Source: Candidatus Heimdallarchaeota archaeon (GTDB taxonomy: Archaea > Asgardarchaeota > Heimdallarchaeia > JABLTI01). Taken from it: 64,000 nucleotides of DNA. A program made the position numbers and the translations under genes. The notes under the pieces were generated by a model. The model was not told the origin of the DNA. It worked only from the letters and a program-made list of their open reading frames with translations, and did not search any database. Positions 2,031 through 21,750 of the stretch are shown piece by piece. The stretch lies in assembly GCA_018238155.1 (NCBI GenBank), contig JABCTZ010000036.1:288001-352000 (forward strand). The letters run 5' to 3'. The number at the start of each line of letters is the position of its first letter. The first letter of the stretch is position 1.

Positions 2031-2570
2031 CTATAGTTTATCTAATTCAATAACAATCCATTTTATTGCTTCTTCTACACCTATTCCTTTAGTTGCTACA
2101 GTTGGTTGTATGTGCCAGCTGCGAGCACCCATTTTTTCCAGATTATCTAAATTACAAGCTTTGATAATTTCTTCTAATTGCATACATCCTTCAATATCTT
2201 GTTTATTTGCTATGACCAATAAGGGAACATCTGGAAATTGTGGATCAATCAGAACAGTCCAAAGCTCATTTTTTGCTTCTTCAATTCTTTCACGATCAGA
2301 TGAATCGATAACGAATATAATTGCACTTGCACCTCGCATTAATGTGCCCCATAAATTACGAAAATGCATTTGTCCTCCAAGATCAAAAACACTTAGATTG
2401 ACATTCTGTCTTTGTAAGACTTCTACATTGACACCTATCGTTGGAAGCGTTTCAATACTTTTCTCAAATCTAAGGAAATTTAACATGGTAGTTTTGCCAG
2501 CAGAATCGAGTCCTACAACTGCGATTTTAAATTGCTTTTTTTGTCGGAATAGTTTCTGTAAGAAGCTCAA
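2031..2570 (-). CDS. Arf-family small GTPase
   Basis: N-terminal amphipathic MSFLQKLF; G1 GLDSAGKTT, G2 PTIG, G3 DLGGQ..FRNLW, G4 ANKQD, Arf-type W.IQPTVATKG.GV. Confidence 0.95.
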   Translation of the reverse strand: MSFLQKLFRQKKQFKIAVVGLDSAGKTTMLNFLRFEKSIETLPTIGVNVEVLQRQNVNLSVFDLGGQMHFRNLWGTLMRGASAIIFVIDSSDRERIEEAKNELWTVLIDPQFPDVPLLVIANKQDIEGCMQLEEIIKACNLDNLEKMGARSWHIQPTVATKGIGVEEAIKWIVIELDKL

Positions 2571-2743
2571 TGAAATCTTCCTCTATATTATGTCAATAAT
2601 ATTTTTTACTAATGATTACTTTTATTATGTTATAACAATTCTACTTTGTCATTCACTATTTCCAAATATAATTAATAAATCCATCTAAACCGCCATTCTT
2701 GAACGAATTTCTAAGAAAGGTGAAATATATTACCTCTAGCAAT

Positions 2744-3493
2744 TCAAATAAGATTTACTGTAATTTCTATTGTATCTAGTCTTTCATCGAACTTTACGAT
2801 ACCTTTGTTATCTAGATTTCTAAGTGCCTTCAAAATAATAACTGGAGGTGTTTTTGAAACTGATTTCTTCAGTTCATCTAAACCCATTGCTTGTTTGCGA
2901 TATGCAAGCGTTGAAAGTATATCTACTTCAGGTATATCGATACGAACTTCCTTTAAGAGGAAATCCAATATGGGACTTACTTGAACATTTTGTTCTTCTT
3001 CTTTTTTAATTTCATCTAATTGTTGTTGAATTTGTACAATTTGATTATTCATACGGTTTTGAGTAACCTCTTTTTCTGAGGTTTTAGCTTTAATGTTCTC
3101 TTTCAATAAAATAATTTGATTTTCTGTTGAGGAGAGTTCTGTTTTTAACTTGTTGAGATTCTTTTCTATTTGTTCCATTTCTAAGGTCAATTTATTACTC
3201 TTTTCTTGTTCTTCTGAAATATTTAATTTAGCACGTTCAGTTTGTTCATTTAATGTGTTAATATCACTTAGTAAACTCTTCTTTTCATTTTGAAGTTGTA
3301 TTTCATCTCGTTTATGATCATTGAGATTCTTTTCTAAATTTTGAGCATTTTGTTCTGCTTTTTCTAGATGAGAGAGTGCTTCTTTGATTTCTAGAAGAGT
3401 TGCTTCAATTTTTTGATGAATGTTTTGGTCCAATTTTTCTAAGCGTTCCTTTTCGGTTAAAATGCTTCTCTTTAAACTAACTAAGTCTGTCAT
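2744..3493 (-). CDS. long coiled-coil protein with C-terminal winged helix-turn-helix
   Basis: About 165 aa of heptad-rich E/K/Q/N helix, then EVDILSTLAY...LDELKKSV...IILKALRNLDNKGIVKFD (wHTH pattern). Confidence 0.75.
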   Translation of the reverse strand: MTDLVSLKRSILTEKERLEKLDQNIHQKIEATLLEIKEALSHLEKAEQNAQNLEKNLNDHKRDEIQLQNEKKSLLSDINTLNEQTERAKLNISEEQEKSNKLTLEMEQIEKNLNKLKTELSSTENQIILLKENIKAKTSEKEVTQNRMNNQIVQIQQQLDEIKKEEEQNVQVSPILDFLLKEVRIDIPEVDILSTLAYRKQAMGLDELKKSVSKTPPVIILKALRNLDNKGIVKFDERLDTIEITVNLI

Positions 3494-3505
3494 TCAGTAT
3501 ACCTC

Positions 3506-4270
3506 CTAAAATTTTAAACTCCTATCAATGGTAATCGCACCTGATGATGAATCATATGTAATAAGTTTCCTTTTCATCAAACCTTCTAGTGTTTTTATTA
3601 TTAATTCATCTGAAATCCCGGTAACTTTTGAAATGGTACTTAAATCAGTATTTTTTCGACCTTCAAGTGAATTAATAATTTTTAATTCATTAAACTCAAC
3701 ATGATTTTTCTTTATGAGATATTCAAGAGCCATTCTTTCCCCTTTTATTCTTCTAAGGGTATCTTTTTTCGCTTCAATTTTCTTTTCAAACTCAAGGATC
3801 TTTTTTTCACTTGAGCTAACAATTTCTACAATATTATTAGATATTTTTTTGTTCTCTTCTGAAAAGTTTGAATATTCATCTTTAGCTCCTGCTTGCTTGT
3901 TTTTCGTTTCATTTAATTCTGAATTTATTTCTCTAAGTCGTGTTTCTAATTTAGCTCTATTGTCAACAAGTTCTGATAAATTTGATTGTGCTCCGGATAA
4001 TAGTGTTTCATTTGAACTCTTCTCATCTTTTAGTGTTGTAACCTCTCGAGTAAGAGCATCATTAGTTGATAAATAGTTAGAAATTTCATCTTTACGTTTC
4101 TTTTCAAAATTAATCAGATCCTCTATTGGATTTTTTAAATCTTCTAATCCTTTCTTAGTAACTTTAATTTTTTCTTCAAAATTACTGTTTAATTCTTGAA
4201 TTGTGAGCTCTGATTTTTTAATTGACGATTGTACTTCTGATATATCTGTCATAAATTGATTACACTCCAC
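3506..4270 (-). CDS. long coiled-coil protein with C-terminal winged helix-turn-helix (paralog of 2744..3493)
   Basis: Coiled coil, then ELKIINSL...LSTISKVTGISDELIIKTLEGLMKRKLITYD. The probable start is the ATG of MTDISEV. Confidence 0.75.
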   Translation of the reverse strand: MECNQFMTDISEVQSSIKKSELTIQELNSNFEEKIKVTKKGLEDLKNPIEDLINFEKKRKDEISNYLSTNDALTREVTTLKDEKSSNETLLSGAQSNLSELVDNRAKLETRLREINSELNETKNKQAGAKDEYSNFSEENKKISNNIVEIVSSSEKKILEFEKKIEAKKDTLRRIKGERMALEYLIKKNHVEFNELKIINSLEGRKNTDLSTISKVTGISDELIIKTLEGLMKRKLITYDSSSGAITIDRSLKF

Positions 4271-4436
4271 TTCTTTTATATACTTTTTTTCTGAAAAAGA
4301 TTTCGTTTCAATTAATACTTAGTTAATGATATTAATTAATTAGAACTATTCACTAATAAATTAATTTGGTGAAAGATTGAAGAAAAAAGTGAAAATTGAT
4401 TGAAATTTGTTATTTCAATCTTTTAGAGAGCTGCTT

Positions 4437-5822
4437 TTAATCCATATATACATGAGATGCAACTCGTTCTATTACTTCAAGCATTGCAGGTGTATGTTTT
4501 GCTCTAATTGCGTTAACAAAATCATCAGATGGCAAATTTAGTTTCTTAATTTTAGCCCAATCTTGAGAAATCTTCTCTATGAGCGAAACACGGTTAATCA
4601 ATAATGATACACATTCATTATGTTTCTGTTTGGTCATTGTTTGAATGATGTCATTTAAATAAATTGATGTCAGACCTTGGGAAACTTTCTTTTTATCCAT
4701 ATCTAGAATAACTTCATTTGAATAATAAGATAATAAATCTCGATTAACTCTGATAATATCTGCATCTCTAGGATGAATAAAATCTGCAGTATAATTTACT
4801 ATTCTAAGTTCTCTCTCAGGGGCAAAACATTGGATGGTATCAAGAATCATATTTAGTAAAACTTGATTTTTATCTGATTCTGGATCCAATACGATTAGTA
4901 GTAATTTTCTGCTAACTATTGCATCAAAAACTTGATCCATGCCTTTTTTAATTTGTTTAAGTAAGAATGGCATGTTTCCTTTGTCAGTATTTCTTTTTGT
5001 AACTTCTACCCCAAGAGTTCTTTGTGTATCTGGGGTTGAAGTTTGTGGTTGTTGTGTTGTAGTTGATGTTTGAATAGTAGTTTCTACAGGAGAGCTAACA
5101 GGTGCAGGTGCTGGAGTTGGTGTTGCACTTAAAGTAGCTGCTGCTGCAGGGGGAGGAGAATCTGAAAAAGATTTAACTGAATAATAAACTTTATTCCCCA
5201 TTTTTGTGGTGTAAAGAAAACCAGCATTCAATATTTCTTGGATTGTTGCTACAGCTTGTTGAGCTGAACTTTCAGTCATAGCTATGACTTCTTGAAAAGA
5301 TGCAATTTTAGCATCTAAAATTGAACGAGCTGTTTTTTGTAATCTTTGAGGAAGTTCCATAACACTAAGAGTATCTAATTCTCTTCTACTCCCAGACTTG
5401 GTCATTATTCTATTCTCAAAAGCACTTCGTAATTGGTCTAATTTAGCTACAAATCCCTGGAAAACTGAAACATCATCACCTTGCCAGTTCTCAACATAAT
5501 CTTGAGGGAAGATTGCATAGAAAAGTGTTTCAAGTTCAGGAAGTAAAATATCAAGTATTCCTTCTTCATTTGGATCAGAACTAACAACAAAAAATGCCGG
5601 ACCTACTTGCTTGTAAGTTAGTTTTAAATCACCAATCAATTCTTCATTTTGTTGTCCAATACTAACTTTGTTTAAAATGGAATCAATGATTGGTTGAAAA
5701 TCTCCCAAAGAATTTCCTTTTAATTGTGCTTGACCTGGTTCATAATTTCTGTAAACTAACGGAAAATTATTCTTTAAAATTAATACTCGTTTTATCAAAA
5801 CTTTCTTCTCCGAATAAAGCAA
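4437..5822 (-). CDS. longin-like + wHTH + P/T linker + DENN/folliculin-C-like multidomain protein
   Basis: N-terminal beta-beta-alpha-beta-beta-beta-alpha-alpha pattern ending WQGDDVSVFQGF; central wHTH (EILNAGFLYTTKMGNKVYY); low-complexity linker; C-terminal MDQVFDAIVSRKLLLIVL...ILDTIQCFAP resembling a DENN core. Confidence 0.6.
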   Translation of the reverse strand: MLYSEKKVLIKRVLILKNNFPLVYRNYEPGQAQLKGNSLGDFQPIIDSILNKVSIGQQNEELIGDLKLTYKQVGPAFFVVSSDPNEEGILDILLPELETLFYAIFPQDYVENWQGDDVSVFQGFVAKLDQLRSAFENRIMTKSGSRRELDTLSVMELPQRLQKTARSILDAKIASFQEVIAMTESSAQQAVATIQEILNAGFLYTTKMGNKVYYSVKSFSDSPPPAAAATLSATPTPAPAPVSSPVETTIQTSTTTQQPQTSTPDTQRTLGVEVTKRNTDKGNMPFLLKQIKKGMDQVFDAIVSRKLLLIVLDPESDKNQVLLNMILDTIQCFAPERELRIVNYTADFIHPRDADIIRVNRDLLSYYSNEVILDMDKKKVSQGLTSIYLNDIIQTMTKQKHNECVSLLINRVSLIEKISQDWAKIKKLNLPSDDFVNAIRAKHTPAMLEVIERVASHVYMD

Positions 5823-6042
5823 TTATTTCATTTTAGTTCTGCTTTTACTAATAATAAATCCTTCTTTTAAGGATTTAGGCTTTCCTATTATGAATTTATT
5901 TATTTCTTAATTAAAAGAAAAGCTTTTATCGACCTATACAATGGAACATATCGACTCTCAAACTTTCAAGAGTTTTTAATGGAAAATATCAATTTTGGAA
6001 TAAAATGAAAAAATAATTTGGTCAAGTGCAGAGGAAAACTCA

Positions 6043-6897
6043 ATGGCATTTAGTCGTAGTGTAAATGAAGAAAAAGCCTATATTTCGTTCAATTTAGATC
6101 CACGAACTAAACTCTTAATCTTAATGGTGGTATCTTTACTATCTGTTGTAATAAGTGATTTTTTCTTCTTGTTAATGCTTTTTGATTTAGTATTACTTTT
6201 TGCTATTTTATCTAAAGCAAATATAATAAAAATTTGGAAATATGTTAAGCCAACAATTTGGTTAATCATACCGGTTTTTCTTATTCAAACAATTTTTTCC
6301 TATGAAAAATATGGTCCACTAGTAATACTCCCTGAAACTTGGAATCTTATAGGTGGTTTCGTATTAATTAGTGTTGGCTCTCTTTTTTATGCCGGAAGTA
6401 TTTGTTTGAGAATACTCATTCTAGCAGTATCTTCAAGTCTGTTCAGTTTAACTACAGATTCAAATGATTTCTTACATGCTCTTAGAAAGATAGGTTTTCC
6501 ATATGAAATTGCTGTTGTTACTGGCTTAATTATTTATTTTCTACCCATGGTTATTTCTGAAACTACTTCTGTAAGAAATGCGCTAGAAACGAGAGGAGTG
6601 AGTATAAGAAAAGGTCGTTTTCTATCAAGATTAATGACATTTAGAATATTAATCACAGCAATTCTAATGAACTTTATTGAGAAATCAAAATTTCAAGCAA
6701 TGGCAATGGATTCTCGAGGATTTAATTCAAAGATAAGAAGAACAACTATTTGTGATTTGAAGCTCAAAGTAAATGATTATGTGATCATGATTGTAGTAGT
6801 AGCCATATTTGCAGGTATATTCTATTATTTTTGGGAGGAAATAAATTTCTTAGAGAATATATTTGACTATTTTGGAAATATCTTTAACCCAAACTAA
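6043..6897 (+). CDS. ecfT: ECF transporter transmembrane component T
   Basis: LDPRTKL start, multiple TMs, two X-R-G motifs (ETRG, DSRGF). Confidence 0.9.
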   Translation: MAFSRSVNEEKAYISFNLDPRTKLLILMVVSLLSVVISDFFFLLMLFDLVLLFAILSKANIIKIWKYVKPTIWLIIPVFLIQTIFSYEKYGPLVILPETWNLIGGFVLISVGSLFYAGSICLRILILAVSSSLFSLTTDSNDFLHALRKIGFPYEIAVVTGLIIYFLPMVISETTSVRNALETRGVSIRKGRFLSRLMTFRILITAILMNFIEKSKFQAMAMDSRGFNSKIRRTTICDLKLKVNDYVIMIVVVAIFAGIFYYFWEEINFLENIFDYFGNIFNPN

Positions 6898-6911
6898 AAG
6901 GTGAACAAAAA

Positions 6912-7697
6912 ATGTTAACAAAATTTATTGGAATAAGTGGTGCAAAGAAATCTGGAAAAACAACCACTATCGAAAAACTCGTACCAAAACTAAATGATTT
7001 AGGCTATAAAATTGGAACAGTAAAAATCGCTTTCAAAGATGTAACTATTGATGTAAATAACGAGCATTTTGATGTTATACGACATCGCAAAGCTAAACCT
7101 GCAAAAACATTATTCAAATCATCAATCGATACAACAGTCTTCATAAATAACGATTTAACTCTGAGAGAATCCCTGAGAGGTTTTGGAAAAGATCTTGATA
7201 TTGTTCTTTTAGAAGGGTTCAAAGAAAACCTTGTTGGATTTCCTCAGATTGTTTTGCTAAATGAGAAAGGGCAAGAATCAAAAGTTGTTGATGAATATAC
7301 AGTAGCAATATCTTCTATCCCTGAATTCAGCTTGAAAAGTTCTGATATGAGATTTGTTTCATTTGATAACCTAACGGAAATTGTTGTAGAGAAGTCTATG
7401 CCTTTATTTCCAGAACTTGATTGTAAACACTGTGGGTATGATGACTGCAACTCTTTAATTAAGGACATTATCCTCGGGAAGAAAAAAGTATTAGATTGTT
7501 ATGTCTTAGAAACAGAAATATCCGATCTTCTTTTACAGGTAAATAATAAAATCATCCCTTGTAATCCATTTGTTCGCACAATTCTAAAAAAAGTCATCAT
7601 TGCTGTTTTACAATCAATAAAAATAGAGGAAGATGATTTTTCTGAAATAGACATCAAAATCTTGTTAGATAAGAAAGAAAGGGAGGATATGAAATAG
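6912..7697 (+). CDS. mobB: molybdopterin-guanine dinucleotide biosynthesis protein B with Fe-S domain
   Basis: GAKKSGKTT P-loop, DIVLLEGFK, PELDCKHCGYDDC...C cluster, C-terminal NPFV. Confidence 0.88.
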   Translation: MLTKFIGISGAKKSGKTTTIEKLVPKLNDLGYKIGTVKIAFKDVTIDVNNEHFDVIRHRKAKPAKTLFKSSIDTTVFINNDLTLRESLRGFGKDLDIVLLEGFKENLVGFPQIVLLNEKGQESKVVDEYTVAISSIPEFSLKSSDMRFVSFDNLTEIVVEKSMPLFPELDCKHCGYDDCNSLIKDIILGKKKVLDCYVLETEISDLLLQVNNKIIPCNPFVRTILKKVIIAVLQSIKIEEDDFSEIDIKILLDKKEREDMK

Positions 7698-8225
7698 ATG
7701 AAGAAAGGATCTATTATTCTCTTGGTTATAATATTTAATGTTGTATTGGGAGCTTCATTAGTAGCTGTCTATTTTACTACCTTCAATCATAATGAACCTA
7801 ATGAAGAAGCGTGGATTTTAACCATAAAAGGTGATGTAGTTCAAGAACTCAATCTAACAATTAAAGATTTGGAGGTTATGCCGAATATTACTCGAGATTA
7901 CATTGTGCAAGGAACACCAACAACTAATGATACGTATACTGGTGTATCGTTATATTATCTTGTTACAGAAGTTGCCAATATAACTTTAGCAGCAACAATT
8001 AAAGTAATTTCTATTGATTTATTTTCGAATTCACTTTCATTAGACGAAATAAATGCTACACGTGATATAATAATTGCCCACAAAATAAACGGTGATAATA
8101 TTACAAGTCATTCAGATGGTGGGGTCGGACCTTTACGTTTGATTATCCCACAAAAATTTGAAGGAGAATATAACGGTCAATATTGTGTTAAATTTGTTGT
8201 AGAAATAAAAATAACTTTGTTGTAA
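7698..8225 (+). CDS. membrane-anchored molybdopterin-binding (sulfite-oxidase-fold) domain protein lacking the Mo-ligand Cys
   Basis: N-terminal TM; W.LTIKG.V, YTGVSL, IIIAHKING, GPLRLIIP, VKFVVEI motifs of the Oxidored_molyb domain. Confidence 0.8.
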   Translation: MKKGSIILLVIIFNVVLGASLVAVYFTTFNHNEPNEEAWILTIKGDVVQELNLTIKDLEVMPNITRDYIVQGTPTTNDTYTGVSLYYLVTEVANITLAATIKVISIDLFSNSLSLDEINATRDIIIAHKINGDNITSHSDGGVGPLRLIIPQKFEGEYNGQYCVKFVVEIKITLL

Positions 8226-8230
8226 AATTA

Positions 8231-8851
8231 TTGGAGATACCAATATTGAAACGATTCAATACCTTTGATTTAATAATGATTGCTCTGATGGCTGCATTAG
8301 GTCTAGGTACAAAACAACTGGTTCGTCCATTGGTTTCTCTAATAACTATTCCCTTGTTAATTCCCGGAGGAGCTTTAGCAGGTGGATTCTATATGCTATG
8401 GTTAGTACTAACTAAAAGATTTGTACCGAAATTTGGTTCTGGAATATTTTTTGGCTTAGTTCAAGCATTAGTTGTTATGATTATGCCTTTTGGGTCACAT
8501 GGCATTTTCACATTCATTACCTATTCAATGCCTGGTTTAGCTGTAGATCTTATTGAAATAATCTTTAGAAAAATGAAATCAAAATGGCTGACATCTATGC
8601 TTGAAGGTGCTCTATCTAATTTAGTGGGAACAATTGCAGTTTCAAGTATAATATTTGAATTATCTGTTGAAGTTTTACTCTTCGTAGGTTTATTAGCACT
8701 CTTTTCTGGTAATATTGGCGGAATAACTGCTTATTTAATTATTTCTCAAATTAAAGATCCATTAATTCAAGAATCAATTATAGAGAACCCATCTTTACAA
8801 ATGGAAAAAGAGGATCTACCTCATAGTGAAGTAGTTACCGAAATGAGTTGA
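8231..8851 (+). CDS. ECF transporter substrate-specific S component
   Basis: About 6 TM; N-terminal FNTFDLIMIALMAA (AxxxA); PKFGSG; G.AVDL; GNIGG. Confidence 0.75.
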   Translation: MEIPILKRFNTFDLIMIALMAALGLGTKQLVRPLVSLITIPLLIPGGALAGGFYMLWLVLTKRFVPKFGSGIFFGLVQALVVMIMPFGSHGIFTFITYSMPGLAVDLIEIIFRKMKSKWLTSMLEGALSNLVGTIAVSSIIFELSVEVLLFVGLLALFSGNIGGITAYLIISQIKDPLIQESIIENPSLQMEKEDLPHSEVVTEMS

Positions 8852-10426
8852 TTATAGCTCATCAAAAACTAGTTTTCCATTGAAAATTGTTCCAAGAACT
8901 TTTGTTTCTTTAATTTTCATAGGATCAATGTTTAGAATATCCTGATCTAGAATTACAAAATCAGCTAGTTTTCCAATTTCAATTGAACCTTTAATTTTCT
9001 CTTCAAAAGATGAATAAGCAGCACCAAGTGTGAAATAGTATAATGCTTCTTCTGCAGATATTCTTATAGCATCTATTGGATGTGCGGCAACAGACCATAT
9101 ACCAAGCAATGGATCTAAAGGCATATTATCAGAACCAAAGCACAATTTCGTCTTTTCATCAATTATTTTTCTAAATCTATTCAATAATTTATATCTCTCT
9201 GGTCCCAATTTGGTTTCATATAATTGTCCGGGTTGTCCCCATCTTCCGGGGAAATTTGGTTGCATTGATAAAACTAATCCTAAATCATTTACCTTTTTCA
9301 ATTGTTCATCCAAAAGGTATTCAGCATGTTCAATTCGATGCCGACCCTTTCTGACAAGTTCTGGATTGTTTATTTCTTCAAATGCTTTCAATACAAAATC
9401 TATTGCTTCGTCACCAATTGCATGTATAGCTGTTTGCCAATCATTTTCAATTGCAGTTCGAACGGTTTCATGGAAAACTTTCTCTTCAATGTAGAATCCA
9501 CCTTTAGTCGTTGTATCGTCAAAATATGGCTCCTTAAGTGCAGCAGTTCTTGCACCTATAGAACCATCAGTAAATATTTTCACTCCACCAATACGAAGAA
9601 TATCATCTCCAAATCCTGTTTTAATACCTGTATTGATGTAATTGTTAAACCGTAACCGAGGAACATTCATGTACACTCGAATTGTAAGTTCATTTCTTTT
9701 CCAAGCAGAAATATATGATTTTACACTGCGAACAGAAAGATTGTCTGTAACAGAAGTAACTCCAAGTGAATTGGCAAATTCGCAAGCGGTTTTTACTGCT
9801 TCATCTAATTGTTCTTGTGGTTTCTTCAACTTAGGTGAGGTAGCAATTCTATCAATTAGTGTATCTGTTAAAATCCCTAAAGGTCTTTTTGTTACTGGAT
9901 CCAAATCTAAATCCGGATCATCTTTAGCAATTCCTAGTTCTTCTAAGGCAAGACTATTTACTGCAATTAAGTGTCCACACACTCTGCGAATATAACATGG
10001 ATTTTTTGGTGCAATAGCATCCAATTCATCAAGAGTGAGATATCTTTTGTCATCCCAATTACTTTCATCCCATCTTTCACCAAAAATCCAATTTCCAGAA
10101 GGAGTCTTACTTACTTTCAGTAAAATTTCTTCCAGAGCTTCTTTTGGAGACTTTACTTTATTCAGCATAACATCTTTGAATGTTGCACTTATTGCCAGTA
10201 TATGTGTGTGAGTATCGTTGAAACCTGGGCACAGAAATCTACCTTTCAAATCCAAAATTCGTTTCACTTTGGAAAATTTTTCTTTTAGACCTTTTGTAGA
10301 CCCAACGGCGAGTATCATGCCATTTTGTACTGCGATAGCTTCTGCTCGCGGTTGCTTAGAATTTTGAGTGACTATATTTCCATTAATTATTAAGAGATCT
10401 ATTTGAGAGAACAAATTTATTACCAA
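8852..10426 (-). CDS. amidohydrolase family 3 (YtcJ-like)
   Basis: PGFNDTHTH, KIFTDGSIGARTA, HAIGD, RIEHA, FGSDN, GKLADFVIL. Confidence 0.92.
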   Translation of the reverse strand: MVINLFSQIDLLIINGNIVTQNSKQPRAEAIAVQNGMILAVGSTKGLKEKFSKVKRILDLKGRFLCPGFNDTHTHILAISATFKDVMLNKVKSPKEALEEILLKVSKTPSGNWIFGERWDESNWDDKRYLTLDELDAIAPKNPCYIRRVCGHLIAVNSLALEELGIAKDDPDLDLDPVTKRPLGILTDTLIDRIATSPKLKKPQEQLDEAVKTACEFANSLGVTSVTDNLSVRSVKSYISAWKRNELTIRVYMNVPRLRFNNYINTGIKTGFGDDILRIGGVKIFTDGSIGARTAALKEPYFDDTTTKGGFYIEEKVFHETVRTAIENDWQTAIHAIGDEAIDFVLKAFEEINNPELVRKGRHRIEHAEYLLDEQLKKVNDLGLVLSMQPNFPGRWGQPGQLYETKLGPERYKLLNRFRKIIDEKTKLCFGSDNMPLDPLLGIWSVAAHPIDAIRISAEEALYYFTLGAAYSSFEEKIKGSIEIGKLADFVILDQDILNIDPMKIKETKVLGTIFNGKLVFDEL

Positions 10427-11904: not shown

Positions 11905-12097
11905 AAGATATTCATTAGAATAATATTAAAACACCACAATCATGATAAACTTGGAATTTTTTATCATAGTGTGTTTATTATTTCCTCAACTGATATTTTT
12001 ATAAAGTGCAATTGCTTTCGTATGAAATCATTGATATATTTGTGAAATAAGACTACAATGAAACTATTAGCATAATTTGAAGTTTGGAGTAATAAAT

Positions 12098-12628
12098 GTG
12101 AAACTATTAGCAAAAGTTGTCTTAGCGGGAGATGGAGGAGTAGGAAAAACTACATTAATTCATCGATACATCACAAATAGTTTTATCGATTCCACTAAAA
12201 TAACAATCGGTGCTGCTTTTCATACGCACGAAATAGAAACAGAAGAACATAGCGTTTTAGTTCAAATATGGGATTTAGGTGGTCAAGAGCAATTTAAACA
12301 GATGGGCATTTTTGACAGATATTTCAAAGGTACCTCAGTTTCAGTTATTATGTTTGATCTAACTCGATTAAGTACAATTGAAAGTATCTATGAATGGGCT
12401 GATTTGGCTTTAGGTGCAAGTAACACTAAGATAATTCTTGTAGGTGGAAAAAAAGATTTAGCAGGTGGTATTATCTTTAATGAAGAAACATTCCCTGAGT
12501 TGTTTGAAAAATACGATTTCATTTCTTATCATGAAACATCATCAGCAACTGGAGAAGGTGTTCCTGAAGTTTTTCAATCAATTGCACAAACTATAATTGA
12601 TTTAACATTGGAGAAAAAATCTCTATAA
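12098..12628 (+). CDS. Rab-like small GTPase
   Basis: GDGGVGKT, TIGAAF, WDLGGQEQF, GGKKD, ETSSATG. GTG start at 12098 chosen because GGAG precedes it (ORF track starts at 12077). Confidence 0.92.
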   Translation: MKLLAKVVLAGDGGVGKTTLIHRYITNSFIDSTKITIGAAFHTHEIETEEHSVLVQIWDLGGQEQFKQMGIFDRYFKGTSVSVIMFDLTRLSTIESIYEWADLALGASNTKIILVGGKKDLAGGIIFNEETFPELFEKYDFISYHETSSATGEGVPEVFQSIAQTIIDLTLEKKSL

Positions 12629-12774
12629 ATCGATTATTTATCAAAGTTATTCAATTTAACATTAAATAGTATTTTAAAGTATTAATTATTTATAAATACG
12701 ATAATTATATATTGTAGAAGAACTAGATTCAATCGAAAATTACCTAAGTAAGAACAATTTGGAGATTCAATAGA

Positions 12775-13554
12775 ATGCCTACAAGTCCAGTAATTCAAGA
12801 ATTGAAATCAATTATAAGCTCAATTATATCACAAGGAAAAACTGGTAACATGCGGGCAGTTGTACAATCTCTTCATGAATTTGAAAAAAGGACAAAACAC
12901 AAAAAGAATGATCCTGCAATTCAAGTATTATCAGCACAAGCTTATCGGCATTCTTTAGAACCATTTGGTGTTGCCAAGAAATTCAAAGATGTTGAACTGA
13001 TGATAATAAAAATAGAACACCTTCTGAAAGAAAATCCAACATCTGAGGATATGCAAGAGATTTTCAGTGAAGCATTGAATGCTGCGATTTATCATTACAT
13101 AATGAATGAAAAGGAAAAGGAAATTCATCAAACTTTGACACGCCTCGGTGAATTTGCAAATAAAAATCAAGTAAATCCATTCGTACAATTTAATTACGCA
13201 ATGTCTCTTTCTAGAGTGGCAGAATATTTTGTGTCAAAGGAAAATAAAGAAGTTGCTTACAATATCTTATGGGAAATTATTGGTATAGTAACGTTCTATC
13301 CTGGAAAAGAAATCTTAACACAAGTTAGCGAAGGATTATTACAATGTGTGAAAATTGCTGGTGGTAGACTAACTATGATTGAATTAGATGATTTAGCTAA
13401 TCGAATTGATGAATTCATAAATTTCACAAACGAATTTGGAATTCAACAAAAATTAACTACTTGTCAGGGACTAATTGTTCAATTTGTTGCTGGATTACGA
13501 ATGAGAAACGGATATAGTCCTGATGGGAAACTACAAAGAATCTACAAGAAATAG
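12775..13554 (+). CDS. hypothetical all-alpha (solenoid-like) protein
   Basis: Repeated amphipathic helix pairs; GGAG before the ATG. Confidence 0.65.
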   Translation: MPTSPVIQELKSIISSIISQGKTGNMRAVVQSLHEFEKRTKHKKNDPAIQVLSAQAYRHSLEPFGVAKKFKDVELMIIKIEHLLKENPTSEDMQEIFSEALNAAIYHYIMNEKEKEIHQTLTRLGEFANKNQVNPFVQFNYAMSLSRVAEYFVSKENKEVAYNILWEIIGIVTFYPGKEILTQVSEGLLQCVKIAGGRLTMIELDDLANRIDEFINFTNEFGIQQKLTTCQGLIVQFVAGLRMRNGYSPDGKLQRIYKK

Positions 13555-13567
13555 TTTGATTATCAAT

Positions 13568-14389
13568 CTAGGCACTTTTTTCAAGCATTTGATGTAATAT
13601 TGATTCTAGATGGGCTATTTGAACAATACCTACTAAATGCCTTCCTCCTGCGATAATTGTCGGATAGGCAGTAACTCCATACGCATCTACTATTTGAGGG
13701 TCGGTTTCTGCATCAATCGTTTCAACCTCTAAAGCAAACTTTTTAGCAACTTTCTCAATGTGATTTAAAGCAACTTTTGACCATGCATCTCCTTTCTTAA
13801 CAAAGAAGAGAATCTTAGTAGATATTTTTTCAATAATTTTCGGTGAAATATCAGGGATAGGAATAACACCTGACACAATTTGTTGAATAATTAAATTAAA
13901 AGCAGCATCAACATTTGTATCTGTTTTTGCACTTGTGAAAATCAAATTAGCTTTTGCTGCGGGAGTATCACCTAGAGTTTTTAGATTAAAAGATAATGGG
14001 AGTTGCTTTGTTTGTGCTAAATCGAGTTTAGTTCCAACTAAAATTACCGGAACATCCTTTTGGTTATTAGCCGTTCTAAGATCTTCATACCAACCTGATA
14101 AATTGTTAAACGTTTCAGGTTTAGTTAAGTCATAAGTTAATAGAGCTCCAGATGCCCCTTGCAAGTATCGCAAACCAATTTTCCGTCTGCTCTTTTGTCC
14201 TGCGATATCCCAAATCATTAATTTTACTTCTGCATCCGGGTATTCAAAAGTTCTAACATAAAAATTTAAACCCAAAGTGGTCATATAATCTCTGTGAAAT
14301 CTATCGTAAATATATCTTTGAACTAAACTTGTTTTACCTACTCCCGGATCGCCAAGTAAAACGATTTTTCTTTGGTACAATTTTGTCAA
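13568..14389 (-). CDS. Rab-like GTPase fused to a C-terminal thioredoxin-fold domain
   Basis: GDPGVGKTS, WDIAGQ, GTKLD, TSAK; then ILFFVKKGDAWS...IDAETDPQIVDAYGVTAYPTII (Trx-like, no CxxC). Confidence 0.85.
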   Translation of the reverse strand: MTKLYQRKIVLLGDPGVGKTSLVQRYIYDRFHRDYMTTLGLNFYVRTFEYPDAEVKLMIWDIAGQKSRRKIGLRYLQGASGALLTYDLTKPETFNNLSGWYEDLRTANNQKDVPVILVGTKLDLAQTKQLPLSFNLKTLGDTPAAKANLIFTSAKTDTNVDAAFNLIIQQIVSGVIPIPDISPKIIEKISTKILFFVKKGDAWSKVALNHIEKVAKKFALEVETIDAETDPQIVDAYGVTAYPTIIAGGRHLVGIVQIAHLESILHQMLEKSA

Positions 14390-15461: not shown

Positions 15462-16304
15462 CTATTTCATAAATAAATTCTTTATCCAGATCCAAGCTAT
15501 CAGAAATAATCTTCTGAGCTCAAATTGTTCTGGAATATTAATGACCATCCAAAATGGTAGAGATACATTGGAAATAACCAAATATAGAAACAAGGCAAAA
15601 AGACCAAGCGATAGCAAAATAACAATAATGTCCCACCATTTCAATTTAATAGAATAGAGAAATGTTCTATTCTTAGTTGCATTCCAACCTCGAGACTCAA
15701 TAGCTTCCGCTAGCTGCCAAGATCGTCTTAAAGCTGTAGCAAAAATTGGTATAAGAAGAGGAATCATATTTCTAACTCGTTTAAACAAATTACCACTATC
15801 AATTTGTAAACCACGAGACTTTTGAGCATCAATTATAATATTCGTTTCTTTTCCCAAAGTAGGGATGAATCTGTAAGCGGTGCTAATTGCCCAAGCAAAG
15901 GCATAAGGAAATCTGAATTTGATGAGTGTTTGCGAAATATCATCTGGGGAGACAGTTTGGAAATATAAGCCAAAGAATCCACTAAGTACAATCAATCTTA
16001 TTCCCAAAACAATTGCTTTTGTAGTTGGATGATCAACTTTTAAGAAAAGAGCATTTAAGACTACTATCAATAGAATAACTGGAGTTAAGAAGAGGAGCGA
16101 TTTTAACCATCGTTTCATGAAATTTCCAAAGAAAATCAAAGGAAGAAGAGCAACTAAAATTATACACAAAGGAATGATTTGATTAAGGTAAATGGCCAGG
16201 CAAGTAATCATAAAAATGAATAGTGTTTTTCCTCGAAGATCAACATAATGCAGAGGTGACTTTTGTTCAAGATAATTAAAATAATCAAGTATTTTTAAGC
16301 TCAT
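15462..16304 (-). CDS. ecfT: ECF transporter T component
   Basis: AYRFIPT, AQKSRG, AIESRG. Confidence 0.92.
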   Translation of the reverse strand: MSLKILDYFNYLEQKSPLHYVDLRGKTLFIFMITCLAIYLNQIIPLCIILVALLPLIFFGNFMKRWLKSLLFLTPVILLIVVLNALFLKVDHPTTKAIVLGIRLIVLSGFFGLYFQTVSPDDISQTLIKFRFPYAFAWAISTAYRFIPTLGKETNIIIDAQKSRGLQIDSGNLFKRVRNMIPLLIPIFATALRRSWQLAEAIESRGWNATKNRTFLYSIKLKWWDIIVILLSLGLFALFLYLVISNVSLPFWMVINIPEQFELRRLFLIAWIWIKNLFMK

Positions 16305-16311
16305 ATCTTTG

Positions 16312-17160
16312 TCACCTACTTATTTTTTGCTGTTTTGAAAGCATAGTAAGTATATTTTCATATACTTCTTGTTCATTAATTGAGGTAGCAAAAGTGTCAT
16401 CAATTTGTTGAATTGAATAACACAAATCCAGTAATAGAGGGCTAACTAAATCAGTATCTTGAAGGAGAACTTTATCGGATAATATTTTGGTAGTCCCACC
16501 ATCAGCAATGACTTTTCCTTTTGAGAGTACAATAGCCCTTGGGATAAAATCTAAAATGAAATCCATATCATGAGAAACAACGACTACAGTAATTCCTTCT
16601 TTAGTTAGTTTTTTCAAGAATGAACCTAATTGTTTCTTCTGGCGATAATCCTGACCATAGGTTGGTTCATCCAGAACTAGAATTTGTTGGTTCATTGTTA
16701 AAACAGAAGCAATAGATACTAAACGCCTTTCTCCTCCTGATAATTCAAAAGGACTTCTCTCCAATAAATGTTCTATTTGAAAGATATCAATTAAACTTTT
16801 AATTGTAGCATCTCGAACTGATTCTTCTATCTTTAGATTTTTAGGCCCAAATTCAAGTTCTTTTATAACATTTTGAGCAAATAATTGATGATTAGGATTT
16901 TGAAAAGAGAAACCAATAATGGAAGCCATTTTTGATATTGGTTCTTTAACTATATCTAAACCATTTATTCTAACAATTCCTTCATTTGGTTTTAATAAAC
17001 CGTTGAAATGCTTTATTAGAGTAGTTTTTCCGGCACCATTTTTTCCTACTATTGCTACAAAATCTGCTTTGTTAATTTTAAATGTGATATCGTTTAGAAC
17101 GTACTCAGTTTTCGAATCATATTTGAAGGAAACATTCTCAAACTCTATCATCAATTTCAC
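16312..17160 (-). CDS. ecfA2: ECF transporter ATPase A'
   Basis: GKNGAGKTT, FQNPNHQLF, LSGGE, LDEPT. Confidence 0.9.
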   Translation of the reverse strand: MKLMIEFENVSFKYDSKTEYVLNDITFKINKADFVAIVGKNGAGKTTLIKHFNGLLKPNEGIVRINGLDIVKEPISKMASIIGFSFQNPNHQLFAQNVIKELEFGPKNLKIEESVRDATIKSLIDIFQIEHLLERSPFELSGGERRLVSIASVLTMNQQILVLDEPTYGQDYRQKKQLGSFLKKLTKEGITVVVVSHDMDFILDFIPRAIVLSKGKVIADGGTTKILSDKVLLQDTDLVSPLLLDLCYSIQQIDDTFATSINEQEVYENILTMLSKQQKISR

Positions 17161-17163
17161 CAG

Positions 17164-18006
17164 TTATTTTAAAGTAGCAACAAACTCTTCGACAGTTAAT
17201 GGTATTGTGTTTGTTTTATCTTTCGATAAACCAATTTTTTCATCCAATTTTAGAAATAGGGAAGGGATTTTTGGTAGCATGCTTTCTGGAAACTCTTTAT
17301 TTTGAAATACTGTTTGAATATCCCCAAAAATCTTTAATTGTCCTTTTTCTAGGAAAGCTAATTTGTTAACAAAATTCAAGCATCTATCTAATCGATGCTC
17401 TGCAATTATTATTGTTTTTTTATGCTCAGTATTCAATTCATTGAGAAGATTAAGAATTCGCACCGCGCCCACTGGAGAAAGATGAGCAGTAATTTCATCA
17501 AGAACCAAAATTGGTGGGTTTAAAGCTAAAGCTGAAGCAATTGCAGTTAATTGTTGTTCTCCTCCTGAAATTGAATAGGGAGATTTATATCTAATTTCTT
17601 CTAAATTCAAAAGAGTAATTAATTCATCAACTCGAGACTTCATTTCATTCCTAGGAACACCAAAATTCTCCAAAGGAAAAGCAATTTCACGCTCAACTGT
17701 AAGGTTAGAAATCTGATTTTCAGGATTTTGAAATACAAAACCAACTTGCTTTGCTAAAAATGGTGTTTCACTTTCTAAAGTTGATTTGCCGAAAATTTCT
17801 ATAGAACCACCAAACCTACCTGCATGAAAATGGGGGATCAATCCATTCAAGCATTTCAATAAAGTTGATTTACCTGAGCCGCTAAATCCTGCTAATAGAA
17901 CAAATTCTCCTTCTATAACATCAAATGTAACACGCTTTAAAGCAAAAGAATCTGCATTGCGATACTTGAATGAAACGTTATCTATTTTTATTGCCGTTTC
18001 TACCAC
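17164..18006 (-). CDS. ecfA1: ECF transporter ATPase A
   Basis: GFSGSGKST, FQNPENQ, ISGGEQQ, LDE, EHRLD. Confidence 0.9.
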   Translation of the reverse strand: MVETAIKIDNVSFKYRNADSFALKRVTFDVIEGEFVLLAGFSGSGKSTLLKCLNGLIPHFHAGRFGGSIEIFGKSTLESETPFLAKQVGFVFQNPENQISNLTVEREIAFPLENFGVPRNEMKSRVDELITLLNLEEIRYKSPYSISGGEQQLTAIASALALNPPILVLDEITAHLSPVGAVRILNLLNELNTEHKKTIIIAEHRLDRCLNFVNKLAFLEKGQLKIFGDIQTVFQNKEFPESMLPKIPSLFLKLDEKIGLSKDKTNTIPLTVEEFVATLK

Positions 18007-19957: not shown

Positions 19958-20746
19958 ATGTCTTATTGTCCGTCATGTGGTGCAGAAATTGGGGACCATT
20001 TAGAATATTGTCCTAGTTGTGGAGCTCAAATCAATGCAGAAAATAAAGCTAAAATGGCACAACTTGATCATGATGAAATTCAAATGGCAAAGCCAGGTCA
20101 TGCTCAATTCCAACAAGAATTACCTCGATTGGTTCAGAGAAATTACCTTGTTTGGTTTCTATTGACAATTCTTACTGGATTTATTGGTTTAGTATACATT
20201 TATTTTGTATTTGATGATTTAAAAAATCTTGATAAATATCCTAAACCTGCAGGAGTGAAATCAACAGCTATCAATCAAAACACAATAATAATCGTTATTA
20301 TTCTTTATCTATTGGGTTTGAGTGTTATTGCAAATTATATCATAAATGGTAAAAAATATGGTATGTTCAATGATTACCTTGATACACACCCTCAAAAACA
20401 AATGAATTTACCATCTAAGAATTATATTAAATTAATGATATTTCGTGACATTATACAATTTATTGGATATGGCTTTCTATTAGCTGGTTTCTTTATTTTA
20501 TATGCATCTGCATTTGAAAGTGCAGGGGGATATATTTCAATTACAAATATTGGTCCTTTAAGTTCACTAATGGCGTTAAGTGCCAATATATTGGCAATCG
20601 TTTTCTTTAGCTTGGGTTCTATATTCTATATTCCTGGGCTAATAATAGCAATTTATATGATTGTATTGGATTTCAGATGGCAAGAAGCAATGAATGAACG
20701 TGTAAGAATCATTGATCCAAATTTCATTACGAAGGATTTCTTGTAA
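19958..20746 (+). CDS. zinc-ribbon membrane protein, tandem copy 1 (DUF4234-like)
   Basis: CPSCG...CPSCG, then 4-5 TMs, C-terminal WQEAMN. Confidence 0.8.
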   Translation: MSYCPSCGAEIGDHLEYCPSCGAQINAENKAKMAQLDHDEIQMAKPGHAQFQQELPRLVQRNYLVWFLLTILTGFIGLVYIYFVFDDLKNLDKYPKPAGVKSTAINQNTIIIVIILYLLGLSVIANYIINGKKYGMFNDYLDTHPQKQMNLPSKNYIKLMIFRDIIQFIGYGFLLAGFFILYASAFESAGGYISITNIGPLSSLMALSANILAIVFFSLGSIFYIPGLIIAIYMIVLDFRWQEAMNERVRIIDPNFITKDFL

Positions 20747-20985
20747 AGAAATCACTTTTATCTTTTTTTTATTATGAGACTCTTATACTCACTGAGCAAT
20801 ATGTGAAATTGTCTACAATAATAATTCAAAATAACCTTTAAACAGAAATTGATGATCTTGATAATCATTGAAAGATTTTCACAACTGAAAAAGTATTTTA
20901 CCTTTCAATTTGTAACACTTTAAATAGTAGAAAATACAATATCAAATTTAGGTTGAAAATTAATATTGAGGAGATACAAAATTAA

Positions 20986-21750
20986 ATGACTTATTGTCCG
21001 TCGTGTGGCGCAGAAATTGGGGACCATTTAGAATATTGTCCTAGTTGTGGAGCTCAAATCAATGCAGAAGATAAAAACAAAATACCAAAACCTGGTCATG
21101 ATGAAATTCAAATGGCAAAGTCAGGTCATGCTCAATTCCAACAAGAATTACCTCAACTAGTCCAAAGAAATTATTTAATTTGGTTTCTATTATCGTATTT
21201 AACGGGTGTTGTTATGTTCATTTACATGTACTTTGTATTTGATGATTTAAATAAACTCGATAAATATCCAAAACCAGCAGGTGTTAAATCAACATATCTG
21301 GACCAAAATACTGTGATACTGTATATTGTGCTCTATTTTCTAGGCTTTGGAATTATTGCAAATTATCTTGTCAATAGTAAAAAGTATGGTATGTTCAATG
21401 ATTATCTTGATACTCACCCTCAAAAACAAAATAAATTACCATCCAAGAAATACATCAAATTGATGATAGTTCGCGATATTTTAGGTTTCTTAATGAGTGG
21501 AGTTGGAATGGTCTTTTATTTTATTTTCCTTATAGGGTTTGATATGCTGAACATTGGATCTGGTATACCTACATTTTCAAATGCCATGTTAATAATGTCA
21601 ATCATTGCAATTGTCTTAACTGGTATATGTTTTGTTGCTGTCATGATAATAGCAATTTATCTGATTGTATTGGATTTCAGATGGCAAGAAGCAATGAATG
21701 AACGTGTAAGAATCATTGATCCAAATTTCATTAAGAAGGATTTCTTATAA
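20986..21750 (+). CDS. zinc-ribbon membrane protein, tandem copy 2
   Basis: Paralog of 19958..20746 with the same architecture. Confidence 0.8.
   Translation: MTYCPSCGAEIGDHLEYCPSCGAQINAEDKNKIPKPGHDEIQMAKSGHAQFQQELPQLVQRNYLIWFLLSYLTGVVMFIYMYFVFDDLNKLDKYPKPAGVKSTYLDQNTVILYIVLYFLGFGIIANYLVNSKKYGMFNDYLDTHPQKQNKLPSKKYIKLMIVRDILGFLMSGVGMVFYFIFLIGFDMLNIGSGIPTFSNAMLIMSIIAIVLTGICFVAVMIIAIYLIVLDFRWQEAMNERVRIIDPNFIKKDFL

Follow-up and report, generated by a model that had tools for sequence, protein, structure and literature searches.

A membrane-anchored sulfite-oxidase-fold protein in a putative ECF importer operon for ready-made pyranopterin cofactor in Heimdallarchaeia

Organization of the locus

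The DNA studied here is a stretch of 64,000 nt from Candidatus Heimdallarchaeota archaeon (GCA_018238155.1, contig JABCTZ010000036.1, positions 288,001-352,000, forward strand), placed by GTDB in Archaea; Asgardarchaeota; Heimdallarchaeia; JABLTI01, and referred to as the window. A Heimdallarchaeia-type host also follows from the close homologs of the encoded proteins, which carry Heimdallarchaeota or Asgard names. The window contains a four-gene operon (Table 1) which encodes a T component of an energy-coupling factor (ECF) transporter, a MobB protein, a surface protein with the sulfite-oxidase (SUOX) or pterin fold (gene 3 in the following) and an ECF S component, and which we discuss as a putative importer of finished pyranopterin cofactor. 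Coordinates are counted from window letter 1; C-, G-, L- and P-numbers are our labels for contigs, genomes and loci.

Table 1. Features of the operon and related features of the window.
Feature	Position	Strand	Evidence or remark
EcfT (T component, dedicated type)	6043..6897	+	PF02361 CbiQ/EcfT, E 1e-25; X-R-G coupling motifs LETRG 181, MDSRG 222
MobB with C-terminal four-Cys Fe-S-type domain (PRK14494-like)	6912..7697	+	PF03205 8e-20, PF04060 2e-7
Membrane-anchored outward-facing SUOX-fold protein, 175 aa (gene 3)	7698..8225	+	PF00174 Oxidored_molyb, E 2e-11
ECF S component, YkoE-like fold, own subfamily	8231..8851	+	PF09819, E 1e-13
Upstream intergenic region	5823..6042	none	second pterin-fold gene here, 5' of ecfT, in six relatives
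Separate EcfA-EcfA'-EcfT module	15462..18006	-	same window; probably shared (group II) type

The first-pass annotation of this DNA had described the four genes as a same-strand operon with gaps of 14, 0 and 5 nt, and the coordinates of the open reading frames bear this out. Judging from the sequence, the S gene probably starts with the TTG at 8246 (201 aa in the database). The order mobB-gene 3-S is kept in the relatives of the host's family, and in 71 of the 72 bacterial loci described below a pterin-fold gene lies no more than 3 kb from the S gene; therefore the arrangement is not due to chance. The host paralog of the second pterin-fold gene of the relatives is found away from the operon (C29:19895-20596). 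Promoter and terminator scans at the locus gave results at chance level.

The surface protein

Gene 3 carries one N-terminal transmembrane helix (residues 6-24) and a domain matching PF00174, in agreement with the membrane anchor and sulfite-oxidase-type domain of the first-pass annotation. Because there is only this N-terminal helix and the chain beyond it contains six N-x-S/T glycosylation sequons, the domain is placed outside the cell. The cysteine which ligates Mo in the enzymes of this family had been reported as missing, and this is indeed the case: the hairpin reads YIVQGTPTT, where true YuiH/MsrP-type enzymes of related genomes have LHCVT or IRCVEG. The hairpin is free of Cys in all 28 close homologs and in all 11 archaeal operon domains, and a Cys anywhere in this stretch occurs in 8 of 175 bacterial domains. 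Gene 3 as a whole is not Cys-free. Cys163 (NGQYCVKF), unmentioned so far, is nearly invariant in the archaeal homologs; its position differs from that of the catalytic Cys, and the bacterial orthologs carry Trp there.

The predicted structure (predicted local distance difference test, pLDDT, 86) is closest to PruR (7kom; Z 17.7, root mean square deviation (rmsd) 2.1, 129 residues aligned), followed by the sulfite dehydrogenase SorA (Z 16.8) and chicken sulfite oxidase (SO; Z 16.0), both with an rmsd of about 2.1. PDB searches by single sequence found no match for the 175-aa protein, for S or for the C. aceticum ortholog. The model aligns only to residues 147-311 of chicken SO and 66-225 of SorA, which represent the core. 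As these ranges exclude the catalytic Arg138/Arg55 and Tyr322/Tyr236 (SO/SorA), these residues are missing from gene 3. The earlier label "catalytically dead" is likely to be right, but does not account for the conserved Cys163.

From the model we propose a pocket formed by D107, F109, R147, C163 and K165. Of 194 operon-linked domains 191 have D107, and F109 is Tyr in most homologs. K165 represents the Lys in the VK motif of SUOX proteins and is conserved in all 11 archaeal single domains and in 61 of the 69 bacterial ones covered. R147 and K165 occupy positions which, as in the structure of YedY, probably bind the cofactor phosphate. PruR is a Cys-less SUOX protein holding pterins via N102, Y104 and W160 (PMC11194511). 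D107 and F109 align with N102 and Y104 of PruR, and by the ends of the structural alignment (model residue 173 = 7kos 168) Trp160 falls on K165. A previous mapping of C163 onto W160 was dropped for this reason. The idea that R147 is retained where the kinase (see below) is absent did not hold in bacteria.

Some proteins comprise up to ten tandem copies of the pterin-fold domain. By analogy with PruR we propose gene 3 as a putative cofactor-capture protein. A capture protein of 481 aa with an LVIVD-type repeat region inserted between anchor and pterin-fold domain was found in another genome (G082, L081:4137-5582). Family f6 of the host's class has MsrP/YuiH-like enzymes fused to a membrane domain (L046-L048 versus L049-L053), most with IRCVEG and three with Ser (LRSVSG); they are found in genomes without synthesis of the molybdenum cofactor (Moco).

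Transporter components and MobB

The S component was modelled with six helices (pLDDT 88), and its best Foldseek match is YkoE (5edl, TM-score 0.67, E 0.017). The top Foldseek rows are S components (5edl, 5kbw, 4rfs, 4muu) with probabilities of 0.98-1.0, though E is above 0.001. The fold is closer to YkoE than to the metal-type S component, and the PF09819 match lies above cut-off; no sequence match to YkoE was obtained, even with a profile. The invariant polar and aromatic residues of the S family (K23, Y49, Q73, H85, Y93, N125) look different from the thiamine pocket of YkoE (Y46, W49, E77, Q95, D131) when the two sets are compared as lists.

When compared with a profile built from the T proteins of the bacterial operons, the operon EcfT, co-encoded with S, reaches 169 bits and the other EcfT of the genome 107. 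The two X-Arg-X coupling motifs of the operon EcfT span residues 180-185 and 221-226. No ATPase pair was found within the four-gene operon, whereas in bacteria and other Asgards the ATPases sit in the operon. An EcfA/A' pair without a T component (C39:170931-172594) abuts a second mobB, an arrangement kept in 10 of 10 relatives. Judged by its gene context, this pair is probably the motor of the operon transporter and a better candidate than the module at 15462-18006, which could also energise it; an ATPase tree did not settle the orthology of the pair.

In several other Asgard families S and the pterin-fold domain form a single protein, with the genes for EcfAA' and EcfT behind it, and because of this fusion the two can be tied to one function. 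A complex prediction for S and gene 3 weakly suggests contact, with a score of 0.46 (best control 0.00) on a benchmark where 7 of the 80 solved complexes passed with 0.60 or less, as did both of the mismatched pairs among the passes. The runs agree in at least 94% of contacts, and partner pLDDT is at least 82.

The P-loop domain of MobB scores 71.5 bits with PF03205 (cut-off 26.6) and 73.1 with TIGR00176, just under the cut-off of 76.2; the best NCBIfam match, NF011062, is below cut-off. MobB is present in 44 of the 72 bacterial loci. We propose that MobB with its Fe-S domain is a putative cytoplasmic acceptor or chaperone of imported cofactor. A convincing enzyme for molybdopterin guanine dinucleotide formation was not found in the genome, where a MobA search gave only a divergent MobA-like/HD fusion far below cut-offs. 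This MobA-like nucleotidyltransferase with HD domain (671 aa, genome G000, C39:66313-68328, L170) could add a nucleotide to imported cofactor or remove one from it.

Need for cofactor in the host genome

The host genome has five full-length genes of the aldehyde:ferredoxin oxidoreductase (AOR) family, one of which aligns end to end with AOR of P. furiosus (E 1e-108). Searches of the same genome detected no MoaA, MoaC, MoaE, MoeA or MogA, the only PF00994 match, a candidate for MoeA/MogA, being CinA. Likewise no ModA/WtpA, TupA or xanthine-dehydrogenase domain was found, and the single PF00384 match is weak and lies within a hydrogenase/NADH-dehydrogenase-like cluster.

Because MoaE and MoeA are missing, cyclic pyranopterin monophosphate (cPMP) or metal-free molybdopterin (MPT) would be useless to the host, and because MoeA and the oxyanion transporters are missing, the cargo must be metal-loaded. 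The tungsten form is more likely, since no pterin enzymes other than AORs were found in the genome and stem P3 is missing from the bacterial RNAs described below. Orthologs of the small kinase and the surface phosphodiesterase of the bacterial operons were not found in the host genome, so the cargo is probably still phosphorylated there; the phosphodiesterase occurs in two relatives.

Distribution among Asgard genomes

We surveyed 83 genomes of the host's class, including the host's own family (12 genomes) and families f3 and f6. A link of the S family with lost Moco synthesis, the co-occurrence check suggested for this locus, is seen in the host and all 11 family relatives, which keep AOR without MoaC or MoeA: the S gene and AOR are present in 12 of 12 genomes, and MoaC, MoeA, TupA and WtpA in none. 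Throughout the class, MoaC (20 genomes) and MoeA (21 genomes) occur together. TupA or WtpA is found in 20 of the 21 MoeA-positive genomes and in only 2 of the 62 others. All 62 MoeA-negative genomes keep AOR genes, 60 of them being also without TupA and WtpA. None of the MoeA-positive genomes has an S gene, be it separate or fused, and MobB is present in at least 56 of the MoeA-negative and at least 7 of the MoeA-positive ones.

In family f6 a fusion of S with the pterin-fold domain occurs in 16 of 20 MoeA-negative and in neither of two MoeA-positive genomes. One of the 16 carriers, the single-contig, 96% complete G058, conforms to this pattern and has 10 AOR matches. Weak S matches near AOR genes in f6 turned out to be a different, unfused S paralog. 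Among carriers in other Asgard classes MoaC is absent in 4 of 5 tested. Four contigs labelled Bathyarchaeia or Zixibacteria (L003, L086, P0012, P0045) show the gene order and flanks of the host family and are probably mislabelled Heimdallarchaeia.

Bacterial orthologs and the Moco RNA

In total 357 stretches of GTDB genomes encode a relative of S. For bacteria we used 72 loci (Clostridia, Cloacimonadota, Thermotogae and others) and, for counts of gene content, 50 carrier genomes. The typical bacterial operon comprises multi-domain pterin-fold proteins, S, a phosphodiesterase, a single pterin-fold protein, EcfA, EcfA', EcfT, MobB and a small kinase; tupABC adjoins it in many carriers. A same-strand Moco RNA lies upstream in 44 of the 72 loci, nine of these RNAs being the Rfam-confirmed training set of the search model. 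An Rfam scan of ten bacterial loci found the Moco RNA in all of them and no thiamine pyrophosphate (TPP) or cobalamin RNA. Stem P3 is missing from all 15 aligned Moco RNAs, a form which has been linked to the tungsten cofactor (PMC2408646). AOR is present in 49 of the 50 carriers and MoaC is absent in 23, including 8 of 8 Cloacimonadota.

Several syntrophic Clostridia (L112, L119, L122, L129, L116) have double or triple Moco RNAs in tandem upstream of the operon, followed by very large multi-domain pterin-fold proteins of up to about 1,300 aa. In C. aceticum a P3-less Moco RNA heads an operon for a BtuF/FecCD-type ATP-binding cassette (ABC) system (L001:19017-20567), and at three other loci (L132, L139, L155) a BtuF-like binding protein is inserted in the ECF operon. 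The BtuF/FecCD-type system is a candidate for a second cofactor importer.

Proposed function

In our judgement the operon quite likely encodes a dedicated (group I-like) ECF importer of finished, metal-loaded pyranopterin cofactor, probably the tungsten form. This corresponds to the first-pass proposal of a capture protein feeding the S component and MobB, which gains support from the gene absences, the co-occurrence and the bacterial Moco or tungsten-cofactor (Tuco) RNA. The anchored SUOX-fold protein would bind and shield extracellular cofactor in its old cofactor pocket and hand it to the adjacent S component, as the gene fusions of other Asgards and the complex prediction suggest. EcfT would then flip S and release the cargo inside, using an EcfA/A' pair from another locus, probably the one without a T component; such flipping of S components by EcfT and EcfA/A' is the established mechanism of ECF transporters. 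Least certain is the last step, in which MobB-FeS may receive the cofactor for insertion into the five AOR-family enzymes.

With less assurance we lean towards the wider view that whole Asgard families are tungsten-cofactor auxotrophs which import intact metal-loaded pyranopterin in a vitamin-like manner, and that the operon is one such importer, with a former Moco-enzyme domain as capture protein which possibly holds the metal via Cys163.

Several points weigh against import of finished cofactor by this operon. Free Moco is unstable (PMC7849362). The shortened pocket of PruR was judged too short for Moco (PMC11194511), and gene 3 is shortened likewise; R147 is not conserved among bacterial orthologs. 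No riboswitch, including the Moco/Tuco RNA RF01055, was found by the Rfam scan of the window, and the archaeal loci are likewise without it. The gene absences have to be read with a host assembly completeness of 90.7%, and the related genomes are not independent, so that they amount to some three or four contrasts. Nor is the system confined to auxotrophs, as MoaC is also present in 27 of the 50 bacterial carriers and in one Asgard carrier (G317). If import of finished cofactor is assumed, the MoaC-positive bacteria would both make and salvage it, which is the usual pattern for vitamins.

Family f3 has to be added to these points, for its 29 MoaC/MoeA-negative genomes have AORs and no such S gene. 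Therefore another route must exist. A pterin-fold match is found in 24 of these 29 genomes and in neither of the two MoeA-positive ones (closed, cofactor-making). The eight f3 loci that were read (L064-L071) encode a two-domain pterin-fold protein with Cys-less hairpin, divergent from an ABC importer consisting of binding protein, permease and ATPase, and together these represent a possible alternative uptake route.

Alternative explanations

The best surviving alternative, although we regard it as unlikely, is a cargo of simpler pterin (neopterin, monapterin, a folate or methanopterin precursor) or of metal-free precursor (cPMP, MPT), taken up via a PruR-like binder. The top structural match, PruR, binds non-Moco pterins and shares the shortened hairpin and the N/D-x-Y/F motif with gene 3, and a precursor could be completed in the many bacterial carriers that possess MoaC. 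However, without MoaE and MoeA a precursor is useless to the host, the stacking Trp160 of PruR falls, by the alignment ends, on the conserved SUOX-type K165, and the tungsten-type RNA, MobB and the co-occurrence with AOR point to a metal cofactor.

A much smaller chance is left for a system supplying tungsten itself (tungstate, a chelate or stripped metal), the pterin being made in a way not yet recognised or with genes which the assemblies lack. This would fit carriers without TupA and WtpA, the P3-less RNAs which also head tungstate ABC operons, and the known ECF-type metal importers (CbiMNQO, NikM). Yet the S fold is nearer to YkoE than to those of metal-type S components, many bacterial carriers keep tupABC next door, and MoaC, MoeA and the oxyanion transporters are lost together in about 60 genomes, although identical searches gave strong matches for them in 20-21 others of the class.

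It is highly improbable that gene 3 is an active surface oxidoreductase holding the metal by a relocated Cys163, with a transporter that serves the enzyme or carries its product. The near invariance of Cys163 in the archaeal family and the retained core pocket residues would be explained in this way, but the catalytic Arg and Tyr residues are missing, bacterial orthologs have Trp in place of Cys163, and up to ten tandem copies as well as fusion to S fit capture better than catalysis. We give equally little credit to an ordinary YkoE-type importer of thiamine, hydroxymethylpyrimidine or cobalamin lying among Moco-related genes by chance, as PF09819 and the best structural match would allow, because a Moco motif and not a TPP or cobalamin RNA was found in all ten Rfam-scanned loci, even a profile search did not connect S with YkoE by sequence, and pterin-fold genes are linked to S in 71 of 72 loci.

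Comparison with known systems

To our knowledge, the accepted view is that cells make Moco and its tungsten analogue for themselves. Our literature search, whose coverage leaves out most subscription journals, found no paper on the operon or on prokaryotic import of Moco or tungsten cofactor. A survey of riboswitch regulons from 2013 has no category for Moco uptake (PMC3766115), and according to a review of 2026 the passage of pterins across bacterial membranes is not known (PMC13259868). Uptake of Moco is documented in C. elegans, where the transporter is not known (PMC7849362).

The ECF machine is of a known kind; what would be new are its cargo and the capture protein. With YkoEDC, the group I thiamine ECF importer of B. 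subtilis (YkoE PDB 5edl; PMC5037267), the operon has in common the six-helix S fold, PF09819 and a dedicated T component, and the bacterial orthologs are likewise controlled by a cofactor riboswitch, but by the Moco/Tuco RNA instead of the THI box. S is only 14% identical to YkoE, and the host system differs further by the SUOX-fold surface partner, which is sometimes fused, by MobB in the operon and by unlinked ATPases.

PruR (7kom, 7kou, 7rkb; PMC11194511) and gene 3 are both exported proteins of about 170 aa which consist of a bare SUOX core, have lost the Mo-ligand Cys and share the N/D-x-Y/F contact. The partners of PruR are DcpA signalling enzymes, and besides Trp160 it contains a PW motif (W70). 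In contrast, gene 3 is membrane-anchored, its neighbours are ECF genes and mobB with no DcpA-type sensor, the hairpin contains P74-T75 and no PW Trp, and the SUOX Lys K165 and, in archaea, R147 are kept. By this comparison gene 3 may work like PruR without being a member of the PruR group, as it has no PW motif, Trp160 or DcpA partner. With the enzymes SorA, SoxC, MsrP/YedY and YuiH it shares the Moco-binding core fold (Z 12-17) and the PLR and VK motifs, but it is without the Cys hairpin, the N-terminal Arg loop, the C-terminal Tyr, the dimerisation part and a partner cytochrome.

In the Moco uptake of C. elegans and with the algal Moco carrier protein (PMC7849362, PMC9793310) ready-made cofactor also moves between organisms, and protein-bound Moco is stable; these cases are eukaryotic, have no ECF system and no known transporter. 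TupABC, WtpABC and ModABC (PMC10221389) likewise supply tungsto- and molybdoenzymes and are under Moco RNA control in bacteria. However, their cargo is the bare oxyanion and they depend on the moa/moe pathway, and both the oxyanion importers and moa/moe are absent in the host lineage. The archaeal case is more clear-cut than that of the bacteria: with MoeA and the oxyanion transporters lost, no cargo but the metal-loaded form would be of use.

If import of metal-loaded cofactor is true, the operon would represent a prokaryotic cofactor importer, open to tests on small soluble domains and in culturable Clostridia. A further consequence would be that Asgard archaea near to the eukaryotes depend on an external cofactor, a possible reason for their difficult solo growth, and cross-feeding of cofactor in anoxic communities would be implied.

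Other genes of the window

A convergent amidohydrolase gene (8852-10426) follows the operon; it is syntenic in the host's family only and was excluded from the parts of the system. Upstream, at 2031-5822, lies a eukaryote-like trafficking cluster with an Arf-like GTPase, two coiled-coil/winged-helix genes and a 461-aa longin-like gene, which is syntenic family-wide. Two small Ras/Rab-like GTPases, one with a thioredoxin-like C-terminal domain, flank a helical-repeat gene at 12077-14389. Two tandem paralogous zinc-ribbon membrane proteins of 262 and 254 aa are encoded at 19958-21750.

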